Made by a program: the position numbers and the translations under genes
Origin: Sphingomonadaceae bacterium
GTDB lineage: Bacteria; Pseudomonadota; Alphaproteobacteria; Sphingomonadales; Sphingomonadaceae
Assembly: GCA_947473355.1 (NCBI GenBank)
Contig: CANJCQ010000011.1
Coordinates: 404 to 64,403, forward strand
DNA: 64,000 nucleotides
Direction: 5' to 3'
Notes under the pieces: model-generated
Told to the model about the DNA's origin: nothing
What the model saw: only the letters and a program-made list of their open reading frames with translations
Databases searched by the model: none
Part shown: positions 3,367-55,959 of the stretch, piece after piece
How the letters are laid out: the number at the start of each line of letters is the position of its first letter
How positions within the stretch are numbered: position 1 is the stretch's first letter

Positions 3367-4584
3367 ATGCAGACCATCGCCGAACTCGACCTGCCCCATC
3401 TGGAAATGGACAAGCCCGAGTTCGGGCAGGACCCTTTGCCGCGCTTCGCCGAGGCGCGAGCGCAGCATCCTTGGCTCGCCACGTCGTCGCTGGGTCTGGT
3501 GATCACCGAGCACAAGGCCATGCGCGAGCTGTTCGGGCGCGATGAAGAGCTGCGCCCACCCTACAAGGATGTCGTCGCACTGCTGGGACAGGAGGGAACT
3601 ACCTGGGGCCGTTTCACCGAGGAGCAGCTGATCTCGCTGCCGGTCGATCAGCACAAGTTCCTGCGCGATACCTTTGCCGCCAAGTTCACCCCGCGCTTCG
3701 CCAACCAGATGCGCCCCTTGATGCAGGCAACGATTTCCCGCCTGCTCGACGAATGGGCGCCCAAGGGCAGCTTCGATTTCGAGCTCTTCGCCTCGCACTT
3801 CCCGATCTCGGTGATGTTTGCGCTTGTAGGCGCGCCGCAGGAGGGGATTGCGCTGCTGCGTGACGATCTGGAGGTGATCGGCCTTGCACATTCCTATCAG
3901 CTCGACCTGTTCCCGCGCATCCAGGAAGGCATGGTGCGGATCGACCAGTTCGTGCAGCGCATCATCGCCGAACGCCGCGCGGCCCCGCACGATACCGTCG
4001 AGGACATGCTCGACCTGCTGATCGAAACCAGCGACACTGGCAACGTCAATCACCGCCAGCTGGTCGATCTGATCATGTTCTTCTTTATCGCCGGCTATGA
4101 CACATCGAAGAACGTACTGACCTACACGATGTACACCCTGCTCGACCATCCCGAGATCTATGCGCGCTGCGCTGATGATCTCGACTATTGCCGCAAGGTC
4201 ATCGAGGAAGCACTGCGCTGGTTCAATCCTTCCACCGTGGCCCGCTTCGTTGACAAGGAATTCGAATATCGCGGCGTGACTTTCCCCAAGGATCAGATGC
4301 TGTTCTTCCCGCTGAGCATCTCAGGCCGCGATCCGGGCTCATTTCCGGATGCCGACACTTTCAATCCCGACCGGGTAAACGATCCCAACAACCGCCAACT
4401 CGCATTCGCGCTCGGAAAGCACATGTGCCTTGGCCAATATATCGCCCGCACCCAGTTGCAGGAGGCGCTGCACCAGGTCGCCCAGCGGCTCAGGAATCCG
4501 CGCATGACCGGTGAGGTCGGCTGGCGTCCATTTTTCGGCGCCTGGGGTCTGAAAGGCCTGCCGATTGAATTCGACGCCGCCTGA
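3367..4584 (+). CDS. Cytochrome P450
   Basis: I-helix AGYDTS, K-helix EEALR, heme motif FALGKHMCLG. Confidence 0.96.
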   Translation: MQTIAELDLPHLEMDKPEFGQDPLPRFAEARAQHPWLATSSLGLVITEHKAMRELFGRDEELRPPYKDVVALLGQEGTTWGRFTEEQLISLPVDQHKFLRDTFAAKFTPRFANQMRPLMQATISRLLDEWAPKGSFDFELFASHFPISVMFALVGAPQEGIALLRDDLEVIGLAHSYQLDLFPRIQEGMVRIDQFVQRIIAERRAAPHDTVEDMLDLLIETSDTGNVNHRQLVDLIMFFFIAGYDTSKNVLTYTMYTLLDHPEIYARCADDLDYCRKVIEEALRWFNPSTVARFVDKEFEYRGVTFPKDQMLFFPLSISGRDPGSFPDADTFNPDRVNDPNNRQLAFALGKHMCLGQYIARTQLQEALHQVAQRLRNPRMTGEVGWRPFFGAWGLKGLPIEFDAA

Positions 4585-52817: not shown

Positions 52818-55800
52818 TCACCCCAACCGCGCCAAGGCGGCACCCAGCCGCTCGGCCTCCGCTGCATGCATGGCATGATCGGCGCGGGCCTTTTCGACTG
52901 CCTCGGGTTTGGCCTTTTCGACAAACGAAGGATTGTTCAGGCGGCCTTCGAGTGACTTGGCCTCCTTGGTGGAAACCTCCAGCGCCTTGGCGAGGCGGGC
53001 CTTTTCGGCGGCGATATCGACCACGCCTTCCAGCGGCACGATCAGGTTGGCGTCCCCTGCGCCGATTTGCATCGCCGCACCTTGCGGGGCCGAATCGAAA
53101 CGGATCGCCGAGAGCCGGGCCAGCCGGTCGATGGCGCCGGGATTGGCCTCGATGGTGGCGCGCGTCGCAGGGCTGGGATCGGACAGGTAGGCTTCGAGCT
53201 TGGCGCCCGGCGCGATGCCGAGCTCGTTCTTGGCAGTGCGCAGGTTGCCGACCAGCGCGATCAGCCATTCGACCTCGCGCTTGGCTGCGGGATCGACTGC
53301 AGCGCCCGGCTCGGGCCACTTGGCCGTAATCAGCGGATAGTCTGCCCGCTCGCCCAAGGCCCCCCACAGCTCCTCGGTGACGAAGGGCATGAACGGGTGC
53401 AGCATGACCAGGATCTGGTCGAGCACCCAGCCGGCGACTGCCTTGGTCTCTTCATCGAACGAACCCTTGATCAGTTCGATATACCAGTCGCAGAACTGGT
53501 CCCACACGAAGTGATAGATCGTATTGGCCGCTGCATCGAAACGCAGGTCGGCCATGGCCTTGTCGAGCGCCTCGAGCGTTTCGACGACTTCGCCGATGAT
53601 CCACTTGTTGACCGCCAGCGTGGCCGGGGGCGCGGCCAGCGATGAGCTCGCCCCGATCCCGTTCGACTGGCAGAACCTTGCGGCGTTCCACAGCTTGGTG
53701 GCAAAGTTGCGATAGCCTTCGACGCGGGCCTTATCCATCTTCACGTCGCGGCCCTGGCTTTCCATCGAGGCCATGAAGAAGCGCAGCGCGTCGGCGCCGT
53801 ATTCGTCGATTAGCACCAGCGGATCGTCGACATTGCCCTTGCTCTTGGACATCTTCTGACCATCGGCAGCGCGGACCAGGCCGTGCAGGTAGAGCCGTTT
53901 CCAGGGCACCTGGCCCTGATTGAAGTGCATCCCCTGCATCGCCATGCGGGCGCACCAGAAGAACAGGATGTCGAAGCCTGAGATCAGCAGGTCGTTGGGG
54001 TAGTGGCGGCCGAGCAAACCACTTTCAGTGCCCCCCAAACCCGCTCGTGCTGAGCTTGTCGAAGCACCGCTTTGTTCTTTGGGGCTGGGCGTGTGGGGCG
54101 AAGAAAAGGACGGACCTTCGACAAGCTCAGGGCGAGCGGGGTTTTGTTCCTTGGTTTCGTCCGGCCAGCCGAGCGTGGCGAAGGGCCACAGCGCGGAGGA
54201 GAACCAGGTGTCGAGGACGTCCTCGTCTCGCCAAAGGGGGATTTGCTTGTTCTTGAGTAACTTAAGAAATTCGCTCGATGCACTCGGATCATCTTCGAAC
54301 TTAGCGCCGTTCGCATTTCGTCCCTCAATCTCGACAATCCGTTCTGCGGCTGTCTTGTAGTGAACTCGAGCAAGTTCGGTTGCCTGTTCGAATGTTTCGG
54401 CAACAAAGACTGGGTTCTTACCCAAATCGGTCTTCCAACCAGCCAGCCCAAAAACTTCTGGCTGCCGTTCATCCCAAGTGGGCCCATACCAAGCCGGTAT
54501 CCTATGCCCCCACCACAATTGCCTACTCACACACCACGGCTGGATATTCTCCATCCAGTTGAAATATGTCTTCTCCCAGCTCTTGGGGACAATCTCGATC
54601 CGCCCGTCGCGCACGGCTTCGATCGGCGGCTTGGCCAAGGTCGCCGCATCGACATACCACTGGTCGGTCAGCCACGGCTCAATCACCACGCCGCCGCGGT
54701 CGCCATAAGGCGTCTGGATGACGCGGTCCTCAGCGTCCTTTTCGGTGACTTCGCCGTCCTTGGCCGTCACGCTGAAAGTCACCAGCTGGCCCAGCGCCTT
54801 CATCCGCTCGACCACCAGCTCGCGCGCGCCGTCTGTGCCGTCGCGGCGGAAGCGGTGCAGGCCCACGAATTCCGCCGGGATCATGCTGTCCGAGGTCTGG
54901 ACCACATTGGCCTCGGCATCGAACATATTGAGCATTTCGGCGGGTTTGAACCCGGCGCGCTTGCCAACCTCGAAGTCATTGAAATCATGCCCCGGCGTGA
55001 TCTTGACCGCGCCCGAGCCCAGTTCGGGATCGGCGTGTTCGTCGGCGACAATCGGAATACGTCGCCCGGTGATCGGCTGCTCGATAAATTTGCCGATGAC
55101 CGACTGGTAACGCGGGTCTTCCGCGTTCACCGCCACGGCCATATCGGCCAGCATCGTCTCGGGCCGGGTCGTCGCAACCACGATGTGATCCGCGCCGTTC
55201 GCCAGCTTCACGCCGTCCGCCAGCGCATAGCGGAAGTGCCAGAAGTGGCCTTTCACTTCCTGCGTTTCCACCTCAAGATCGCTGATCGCGGTCTTGAGCT
55301 TGGGGTCCCAGTTGACCAGCCGCTTGTCGCGATAGATCAGCCCTTGGTTGTAGAGATCGACGAAAACCTTGACCACTGCCTTGGTGAAATGCGGGTCCAT
55401 GGTGAACTGCTCTCTCGACCAGTCCATCGAGCAACCCAGCCGCCGCAGTTGCTGCGTGATCGTGCCGCCGCTTTCTTTCTTCCATTCCCACACCTTCTCG
55501 ATGAAGGCCTCGCGGGAATAGTTGGTGCGCTTGTCCTGCGCCGCTTCAAGCTGGCGTTCGACCACCATTTGCGTGGCGATGCCGGCGTGATCCGTGCCGA
55601 CCACCCACAGCGCATCCTTGCCGCGCAGGCGCTCATATCGCACGACCACGTCCTGCAAGGTGTTGTCCAGCGCATGGCCGATATGCAGGCTGCCTGTTAC
55701 ATTGGGCGGCGGGTTGACGATAGTGAAGGGCACAGCGTCAGGGCGATCCGGGCGGAACAGCCCGTTCGTTTCCCAGTGCGCATACCACTTCGCCTCGATC

Positions 55801-55841
55801 TGGGCGGGGTCGAATGTCTTGTCTAAAGGCGTTGAACTCAT
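52818..55841 (-). CDS. valS: Valine--tRNA ligase, with two atypical internal segments
   Basis: [59 protein letters not shown]-terminal coiled coil. Confidence 0.98.
54037..54143. repeat. PELVEG-type palindromic doublet inserted in frame within valS
   Basis: AAACCCGCTCGTGCTGAGCTTGTCGAAG (54037-54064) inverted with CTTCGACAAGCTCAGGGCGAGCGGGTTT (54116-54143), 2 mismatches in 28. Confidence 0.88.
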
Positions 55842-55959
55842 GGGGCGGCGCTTTGCCAGTGGTGCGGCGGACGCGCAACCCATCCCGGTCCCCCACCTGT
55901 CTGCAGCTTAGGAGTTACCCTTGCCGAGGCGCTCATTTTCCCGCATCACTCCCCCCGCA

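Follow-up and report, generated by a model that had tools for sequence, protein, structure and literature searches.

Housekeeping aminoacyl-tRNA synthetases are usually treated as slow, vertically inherited markers, and genes of the valS type serve in phylogeny and in measures of average identity. The valS gene described here raises the question of how an internal segment of such a gene can come to be written in codons that are rare in the rest of its genome. The gene lies in a stretch of 64,000 nucleotides (hereafter the window; positions 404 to 64,403 of contig CANJCQ010000011.1, assembly GCA_947473355.1 of a Sphingomonadaceae bacterium), and the source assembly has 4.05 Mb in 141 contigs, is 99% complete and has a GC content of ≈62%. 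By the names on the closest proteins, the genus is Novosphingobium. A previous sequence-only reading had proposed that a low-GC, rare-codon segment, covering both a variable loop and part of an invariant motif, had been imported from a lower-GC donor by recombination anchored in conserved motifs. Our analysis indicates that the segment is very probably one allele of a hypervariable, recombinationally exchanged cassette in a surface loop of valyl-tRNA synthetase (ValRS).

As judged from its translation, the valS product is a typical class Ia valyl-tRNA synthetase: the HIGH-type and KMSKS signatures are present, it matches the Thermus thermophilus ValRS 1GAX (E = 1.7e-184), and a protein identical to it has precomputed Pfam matches to PF00133, PF08264 and PF10458 (tRNA-synt_1, Anticodon_1 and Val_tRNA-synt_C, respectively). 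The open frame extends upstream of the MSSTPLDK start, as far as position 55883. The loop site is flanked by the two motifs of the catalytic core that are most strongly conserved, here called motif 1 and motif 2, and takes the position of residues 418–445 of the T. thermophilus enzyme.

Composition marks a sharp discontinuity at this site. The GC counts given previously were exact (153/300, or 0.510, over 54241–54540 versus 82/120, or 0.683, over 54601–54720), and the G+C content at third codon positions (GC3), sliding along valS, was 0.80–0.93 in most 30-codon windows and 0.43–0.53 at codons ≈451–540 of the open reading frame (ORF; ≈54232–54530), with a step across the patch from 0.83 to 0.47 and back to 0.87. 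Reference values were obtained from 22,161 sampled 90-codon windows in 2,173 high-GC3 ORFs of the genome (mean 0.775, standard deviation 0.056). Only 0.07% of these windows have a GC3 of 0.50 or less, and the 90-codon minimum of valS, 0.48, is the fifth lowest gene minimum among the 2,173 genes; far from falling within the normal range, the patch is an extreme outlier for its genome. The codons singled out in motif 1 are indeed those claimed (TGT GTG AGT AGG CAA TTG TGG TGG GGG CAT AGG ATA CCG GCT TGG TAT), and within their synonymous families they have genome-wide shares of 4% (AGG, used twice), 5% (ATA), 6% (AGT), 9% (TTG and GCT), 12% (TGT) and 18% (CAA). Rare codons account for 19.2% of the patch versus 5.0% of the remaining valS, and an index similar to the codon adaptation index drops from ≈0.8 to 0.39–0.55. 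Host-like codons resume at the downstream motif (CGA GAC GAG GAC GTC CTC..., from 54230), as had been stated. The extent proposed for the anomaly, 54232–54575, was confirmed up to 54528 and had to be shortened beyond it: the part from 54531 to 54575 is base-for-base identical to locus L113 of a near relative, and its low GC (20/45) is due to its amino acids, so that this stretch is not imported.

The history of the patch differs from that of its flanks. In the protein collection, the ValRS nearest to that of the window are P0154 and P0155 (both 903 aa; DNA loci L111/L113). They are 95.7–95.9% identical to it in the flanks, and the gene order is shared: mlaD, the gene of an ABC ATPase and mlaE on the upstream side (intact in L111), a radical-SAM gene and matE downstream. 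Their loop consists of 25 residues, ADDGQVYVAETEAEALALAGGRAIT, is written in host-like codons and is unrelated to the 85-residue loop of the window. Patch and flanks are thus discordant, since relatives that are syntenic and up to 95.9% identical in the flanks carry an unrelated short loop. At the DNA level, the window and L113 share 82 identical nt that end in TGG TGT GT, and the first change affects the third position of the Val codon in WCV (54528). In the next 44 nt of motif DNA, 12/44 positions differ from L113 and 8/44 from L111; the 12 differences from L113 are all synonymous, mostly towards rare codons, and leave the encoded protein unchanged. An upstream crossover inside the motif would explain this synonymous recoding from 54528. 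On the other side, a few extra differences past 54230 leave the downstream junction anywhere from 54230 to ≈54195, within motif DNA that hardly varies in the genus, as an alignment of the codons of 30 genes shows. Altogether, a block of ≈300 nt in the window stands in place of ≈120 nt in the nearest relatives.

Table 1. Features of valS and of its loop site, in window coordinates
Feature	Position	Strand	Basis
valS, valyl-tRNA synthetase, 1007 aa from MSSTPLDK	52818..55841	minus	ORF list and translation; start same as in relatives P0154/P0155
Minimal tract of putative import: low-GC3, rare-codon allele in place of the short loop of the nearest relatives	54231..54528, downstream end possibly ~54195	minus	DNA alignment with L111/L113; GC3 and codon profiles
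Recoded part of the invariant motif (motif 1), V438-Y452; upstream junction and anchor	54486..54528	minus	Alignment with L113 and L111; codon shares
Cassette interior, G453-W537, 85 aa	54231..54485	minus	Database, Pfam, model and 1GAX comparisons
Downstream anchor (motif 2 region, 23 residues); host-like codons resume; contains the downstream junction	54162..54230	minus	Codon alignment of 30 genes; L111/L113 alignment
Native 15-residue stretch just upstream of the tract, inside the interval first proposed	54531..54575	minus	Same as L113; GC 20/45
In-frame palindromic repeat (MITE/REP-like, see text), second permissive site LGWP...HYPND	54037..54143		43-nt arms, 79% complementary; related genomic copies

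The window is not alone in carrying such an allele. Throughout the Sphingomonadales the site is bimodal, with either a short, conserved loop of 25 residues, a strand-helix hairpin in host codons, or mutually unalignable loops of 65–95 residues. Among the same-genus reference genomes in which the loop was readable (one of these loci being identical to Novosphingobium sp. FKTRR1, which likewise places the genome in Novosphingobium), 6/21 have long loops of 100–110 residues motif to motif, all different from each other and from that of the window; their GC3 is 0.48–0.62, that of their genes outside the loop 0.73–0.85. The remaining 15/21 have a conserved loop of 54–55 residues motif to motif and host-like GC3. 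The short loop was found in 8/8 genomes from other families of the order. In a tree of the N-terminal 430 residues long alleles are scattered, 5/7 adjoining a short-loop sister, and by this tree they are polyphyletic. A further 80 loci from named genomes extended the pattern to Qipengyuania, Sphingopyxis, Sphingomonas, Allosphingosinicella, Porphyrobacter, Altererythrobacter and Caenibius, as well as to assemblies labelled Pseudolabrys, Rhizobiaceae and Caulobacter. Nearly every long loop was distinct in a set of 118 Novosphingobium-like ValRS clusters (64 long, 5 intermediate and 49 short), which contains more than 60 cassette types. The long loops have a common core, GP...vFVAEteeEA...aYYg...i.L.RD, with a variable stretch after GP and a strand-helix core that equals the short loop. 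The AlphaFold model of the window ValRS (118 homologues) predicts a strand (residues 478–480), a long helix (484–506) and a short helix (524–530) in the cassette; the model is only moderate (mean predicted local distance difference test score, pLDDT, of 75.6; block means of 46–83 in the cassette) and was used for secondary structure only.

The proposal that the loop is a hypervariable, exchangeable module, recombining through conserved motifs, was well founded, as pairs of close relatives reveal. Five pairs of clusters (P0208/P0228, P0189/P0254, P0246/P0262, P0233/P0258 and P0159/P0162) have 97–99% identical flanks and unrelated loops, and three pairs of loci were examined at the DNA level. 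L116 and L117 are ≈99% identical and conspecific, differing at 15/2,094 nt outside a tract of ≈900 bp, which is the sole divergent one in 6 kb; within it the alignable flank differs at 35/360 nt (Fisher p = 4e-19) and the two long cassettes are unalignable, so that the cassette is polymorphic within a species. Since the co-transferred flank is GC-rich and ≈10% diverged, the donor would be another Novosphingobium. L118 (isolate Novosphingobium sp. PS1R-30) and L119 (a metagenome-assembled genome) are ≈99% identical over 5.8 kb, with a long and a short allele, respectively, and here the raised divergence begins within the WCVSRQ codons. The opposite arrangement is found in L120/L121, whose flanks differ at 127/1,302 and 138/1,080 nt (≈10–13%) and whose cassette differs at 2 of ≈300–330 nt, a cassette having been transferred between diverged backgrounds; the near-identical block runs from the last codons of motif 1 to just past LGWP. 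The start of the L118/L119 tract and the junctions of L120/L121 lie inside motif DNA. A second divergent tract (25/180 nt) was seen between L118 and L119 at alignment columns 3720–3900, in the C-terminal part of valS, which suggests, from this alignment, that imports by recombination reach the gene at more than one place.

What needed revision was the lower-GC donor. The co-transferred flank, visible in two events (L116/L117 and L118/L119), is GC-rich and roughly 7–10% diverged from the recipient, and the proximate donors of these two events look like congeners, not like a low-GC organism. Moreover, low GC3 is a property of the long cassettes as a class, whatever the host. Composition was surveyed in 93 genes with GC3 above 0.70, 43 with long and 50 with short loops. 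Long loops had a mean GC3 of 0.54, against 0.82 outside the loop, and the drop exceeded 0.1 in 40/43; for the short ones the values were 0.80 and 0.83. A smaller deficit reaches into the motifs but not past either of them: GC3 was 0.70 with long versus 0.77 with short alleles in motif 1 (p = 0.02), and 0.825 versus 0.89 in motif 2 (p = 0.0025). First and second codon positions are nearly unaffected and the amino-acid composition of the cassettes is normal: GC1 is 0.64 in the cassettes and 0.65 elsewhere in the protein, GC2 0.41 and 0.445, respectively. Cassette GC3 showed no correlation with that of the host (rho 0.07). Length alone is not the cause, as loops that are long with host-like GC3 also exist: the 78–81-residue loops of Xanthobacter and relatives, near-identical between the two Xanthobacter species sampled, have a GC3 of 0.90–0.94, and the 130-residue loop (motif to motif) on pORIO5 of Cereibacter azotoformans (L122, 104 kb) one of 0.89 versus 0.91. 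Low GC3 accompanies hypervariability and exchange. As for pORIO5, this small replicon, annotated as a plasmid, carries valS together with gatB and is probably a chromid.

Within each cassette type the protein sequence is conserved. In alignable within-type pairs, the ratio of nonsynonymous to synonymous substitution rates (dN/dS) was 0.05–0.14, so that the cassettes are under purifying selection within their types and not junk. The synonymous divergence (dS) of the cassettes ranged from 1.7 to saturated, that is 2–6 times the flank dS of 0.45–1.35 (four pairs with full-length flanks).

From these data we propose that the near-invariant DNA of both motifs serves as portable homology arms, and that homologous recombination between strains or species swaps the whole loop as a block of ≈0.3–0.9 kb. 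In the lineage of the window, a short allele like that of the nearest relatives would have been replaced by a long allele of an unsampled donor, probably another sphingomonad.

Some results weigh against this reading or limit its reach. Neither protein search recovered a close relative or donor of the window's cassette: against 5.8e9 clustered proteins the sole match of the 85-aa interior was the window's own protein, and a HMMER scan of 1.8e9 representatives retrieved many long-loop ValRS fragments, the best of them a 268-aa metagenomic fragment with 53% identity, motifs included. With no matching donor found, it is discordance and composition from which transfer in the window itself is inferred. 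Even the nearest relatives (L111/L113) are ≈11% diverged from the window in DNA, which limits the placement of the downstream junction, and the direction from short to long would follow from parsimony on the sequences at hand, the alternative being a loss in the relatives. An initial comparison of 46 long alleles gave no pair with cassettes closer than the flanks, and the decisive exchange pairs emerged only from the larger protein set; the reference sister pairs L003/L007 and L006/L017 were too diverged for tract mapping (third-position identity 0.62–0.69). The higher cassette dS, finally, could reflect a deeper coalescence than that of the flanks or, in part, freer synonymous sites.

Four other origins of the patch were weighed. 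The first, an import straight from the valS of some far-off organism of lower GC, whose codons the cassette would still display, is improbable. It would account for a GC3 of 0.47 and for codons rare in the source genome, for the normal GC1 and GC2 with only synonymous usage deviant, as expected of a piece of a foreign gene, and for the failure to find a sphingomonad donor. However, the imported part of the motif encodes exactly WCVSRQ...GHRIPAWY, the predominant variant in Sphingomonadales, and all members of the group of loosely related cassettes (FVAE[ST]FE[EQ]A) belong to sphingomonad ValRS. Nothing similar was found in phage and plasmid collections, where the matches were noise, valS of contaminating bacteria or valS carried by chromids. 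Furthermore, 40/43 low-GC3 cassettes uncorrelated with their host would require dozens of independent donors of similarly low GC. A low-GC organism as the proximate source is thus argued against by the congeneric flanks co-transferred in the two analogous events, by this shared deficit and by the low GC3 that pairs sharing a cassette type show even at saturated cassette dS.

Less probable still is an origin in situ, by loop expansion and fast divergence within the lineage under relaxed constraint and with no transfer. In favour of it, cassettes diverge much faster than flanks (one pair is 55% versus 93% identical) and insertions are clearly tolerated at the site, and divergence in situ was indeed briefly favoured after the first 46 long alleles, until it was overturned by close pairs compared at the DNA level and by the larger set of proteins. 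Unrelated cassettes on 98–99% identical flanks, as well as a near-identical cassette in diverged strains, could not be produced in situ. In the window the whole loop, including the strand-helix core and 15 codons of the invariant motif, is recoded, not the added residues alone; the low within-type dN/dS denotes constraint and not drift, and relaxed evolution at 62% GC would not alone lower just GC3.

We consider it slightly more improbable again that a small mobile element was inserted in frame, be it a repeat of the type of miniature inverted-repeat transposable elements (MITEs) or Rickettsia palindromic elements (RPEs), a degenerate intein or a tract driven by a homing endonuclease. A dispersed palindromic repeat does lie in frame 90 nt away, and the second site of some relatives holds an in-frame DUF559/Vsr-type endonuclease domain, breaks at which could stimulate conversion of the cassette. 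The cassette itself, on the contrary, has a core homologous to the native loop, and the L118/L119 cassettes were exchanged without any element at the second site. No inverted or direct repeats surround it, the only pair found within 54150–54620 being of 16 nt, 75% complementary and at chance level; no second copy of its DNA or protein was found in the assembly (blastn and tblastn); and no Pfam match was obtained for ten cassettes, including that of the window. An in-frame repeat of MITE/RPE type was rejected as the nature of the cassette on the lack of terminal repeats and dispersed copies, and the lack of a second genomic copy also ruled out the target of a diversity-generating retroelement and antigenic variation from silent cassettes. 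Mini-inteins are longer than 85 aa, and an intein was rejected because the cassette has that length, starts with GP and ends with PLW-R, with no Hint domain and no Cys/Ser...His-Asn splice ends. Rfam gave only sub-threshold hits, all on the neighbouring palindrome, and the reading of the cassette as a known RNA was rejected.

Finally, an assembly chimera, with reads of two organisms joined at conserved motifs, can be dismissed: mis-joins classically occur at such motifs, the source genome is in 141 contigs and its assembly, judging from the same protein on metagenome contigs, is probably metagenome-derived, but the identical 3,066-nt ORF (0 mismatches) with identical flanks is found in two independently assembled metagenome samples, on 6 contigs of 50–200 kb in all, the reading frame of valS is intact, and a like architecture occurs in isolate genomes, e.g. 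Novosphingobium sp. PS1R-30 (1.8-Mb contig) and N. indicum.

With an exchanged cassette as the preferred reading, two questions remain to be considered, namely the cause of its low GC3 and that of its diversity. For the former, the hypothesis we prefer is an escape from a GC-favouring force linked to recombination. Such a force would act on the recombining flanks, and the synonymous sites of the cassettes would escape it, in that GC-biased repair of heteroduplex could not form across unalignable alleles; the higher cassette dS would also fit. An unsampled reservoir of lower GC is a possible alternative source of the low GC3.

As to diversity, the preferred hypothesis is balancing selection by something that docks on the ValRS surface; a neutral alternative, a tolerant loop that happens to lie between unusually good homology arms, is possible as well. 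What may bear on this choice is that ≈99% identical strains carry unrelated cassettes, that the 118 clusters hold many types, that dN/dS within types is low and that imports recur at this very site, a pattern otherwise characteristic of specificity regions such as those of HsdS or flagellin. Taking both hypotheses further, we tentatively suggest, as a scenario that we ourselves hold to be rather doubtful, an arms-race locus in the ValRS of sphingomonads and of some other Alphaproteobacteria. The loop would be a surface mini-domain of which dozens of ancient types are maintained by negative frequency-dependent selection, exerted by a docking intracellular antagonist (a phage ValRS modifier like Vs of T4, or a delivered toxin), and shuffled via the motif DNA, and the cassettes would be ≈0.28 lower in GC3 by escaping GC-biased gene conversion. 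The Vs protein of phage T4 is described, in a passage of PMC13716836 that cites Olson and Marchin 1984, as a modifier that binds the host ValRS and is conditionally important for the phage. It offers a precedent, in the E. coli/T4 system, for a ValRS antagonist of a sort that could drive diversification of the surface, with no homologue or binding site linked to the window's loop. If the arms race and the GC escape were true, the valS locus and the similar patches in ileS described below would be a natural experiment for studying how bacterial genomes are kept GC-rich.

Downstream of the cassette, valS has a second permissive site, where the window carries a palindromic repeat resembling a MITE or a repetitive extragenic palindromic (REP) element. 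At least 12 further contigs of the genome carry related copies of this repeat, L111/L113 lack it, and the stretch it encodes is predicted to be disordered (AlphaFold, pLDDT below 50 at residues 562–606). The palindromic insertion is an event separate from the cassette. In other ValRS proteins the same LGWP...HYPND site holds further insertions, which are somewhat commoner with long cassettes (36/64 versus 18/49 in the 118 clusters). P0202 (1129 aa) and P0235 (1053 aa) have there, in frame, a complete DUF559/Vsr-type endonuclease domain (PF04480, PF18741) flanked by repeat-like peptides (SPSPDGEGD... and ...PLHxPAxGPPPRQAGED); the former has a long loop cassette and the latter a short one. In P0161 (1021 aa) the same repeat-encoded peptide (PLPLAGGxGGGSVDAG...PTPNPSRKREGD) is present twice, once at the LGWP site and once past ELIKP, in the part that binds the anticodon.

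Segments of deviant composition were also noted in other genes of the genome. The ileS gene (contig C53:15856-19059) has low-GC3 patches at residues ≈256–345 (0.50–0.70) and ≈886–1035 (0.40–0.60), together with repeat-like in-frame stretches, and in nearly all same-genus relatives the IleRS protein alignment breaks at 262–350 and stops near 901; this gene seems to hold variable modules like that of valS. An ORF for a UvrD/PcrA-like helicase of 1144 aa (contig C8:60187-63619) looks interrupted by an intein (CLAAGTMITMADGS ... GIVTHN/S), whose centre has a GC3 of ≈0.49. Windows of 90 codons with a GC3 of 0.44–0.52 were found in a purL-like (C59:5461-7699, codons 601–691), a recJ-like (C15:3859-5731, codons 139–229) and a dnaE2-like gene (C69:14800-18340, codons 161–251), and may be further mosaic or repeat-bearing segments.

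An internal module of ≈300 bp in valS thus acts like flagellin or the specificity region of HsdS, with dozens of unrelated alleles, polymorphism within species, transfer between species via motif homology arms and a codon usage of its own. It points to an interaction surface on ValRS that would be of concern to the cell or to its parasites. It also offers a clean test of why hypervariable or accessory DNA is richer in AT than the core, foreign origin being set against escape from a recombination-linked GC drive. On the practical side, the cassettes should be masked when valS, and apparently ileS too, is aligned, used for trees or scanned for recombination in Alphaproteobacteria.

Among known systems, the segmentally variable genes of Zheng, Roberts and Kasif (2004, PMC387263) include aminoacyl-tRNA synthetases and have biased codon usage in their variable regions. 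The valS gene resembles them in being a conserved gene with an internal, highly variable segment. Unlike the present comparison, that study dealt with distant species and had ProRS as its synthetase example, and cassette polymorphism within a species, junctions in motif DNA and a GC3 deficit of ≈0.28 are absent from it. In position, the module corresponds to the zinc-binding insertion of T. thermophilus ValRS, which likewise lies between motif 1 and RDEDVxDTWFSS; the latter has 28 residues with CxxC pairs, the window's module 85 residues, no cysteines and a predicted strand-helix-helix arrangement. In-frame RPEs and MITE/REP elements show that extra surface-loop residues are tolerated in an essential enzyme, a parallel that applies to the neighbouring palindromic repeat; unlike RPEs, the valS cassette is not palindromic, is unrepeated in the genome and is homologous to the native loop.

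The target-recognition domains of HsdS in type I restriction and the central domain of flagellin are recombining modules between conserved flanks, typically of lower GC than the genome. The ValRS loop shares with them, as they are generally known, many unalignable alleles between conserved flanks, swaps by homologous recombination and conservation within types, and differs in that those modules face DNA targets, phages or immunity and their diversity has a known agent of selection, whereas this one belongs to a cytoplasmic, essential enzyme of translation. Mosaics of pbp2x and penA are essential genes with imported blocks, sharp boundaries of divergence and donors in related species. In these penicillin-binding protein genes, the block is alignable and selected by antibiotics; in valS it is unalignable, changes the length by 40–70 residues and exists in dozens of types. 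No description of a within-species, motif-anchored, low-GC cassette in ValRS was found in the literature searched. The concepts of the mosaic gene and of the segmentally variable gene are well established, and the ValRS cassette is a new case among these.

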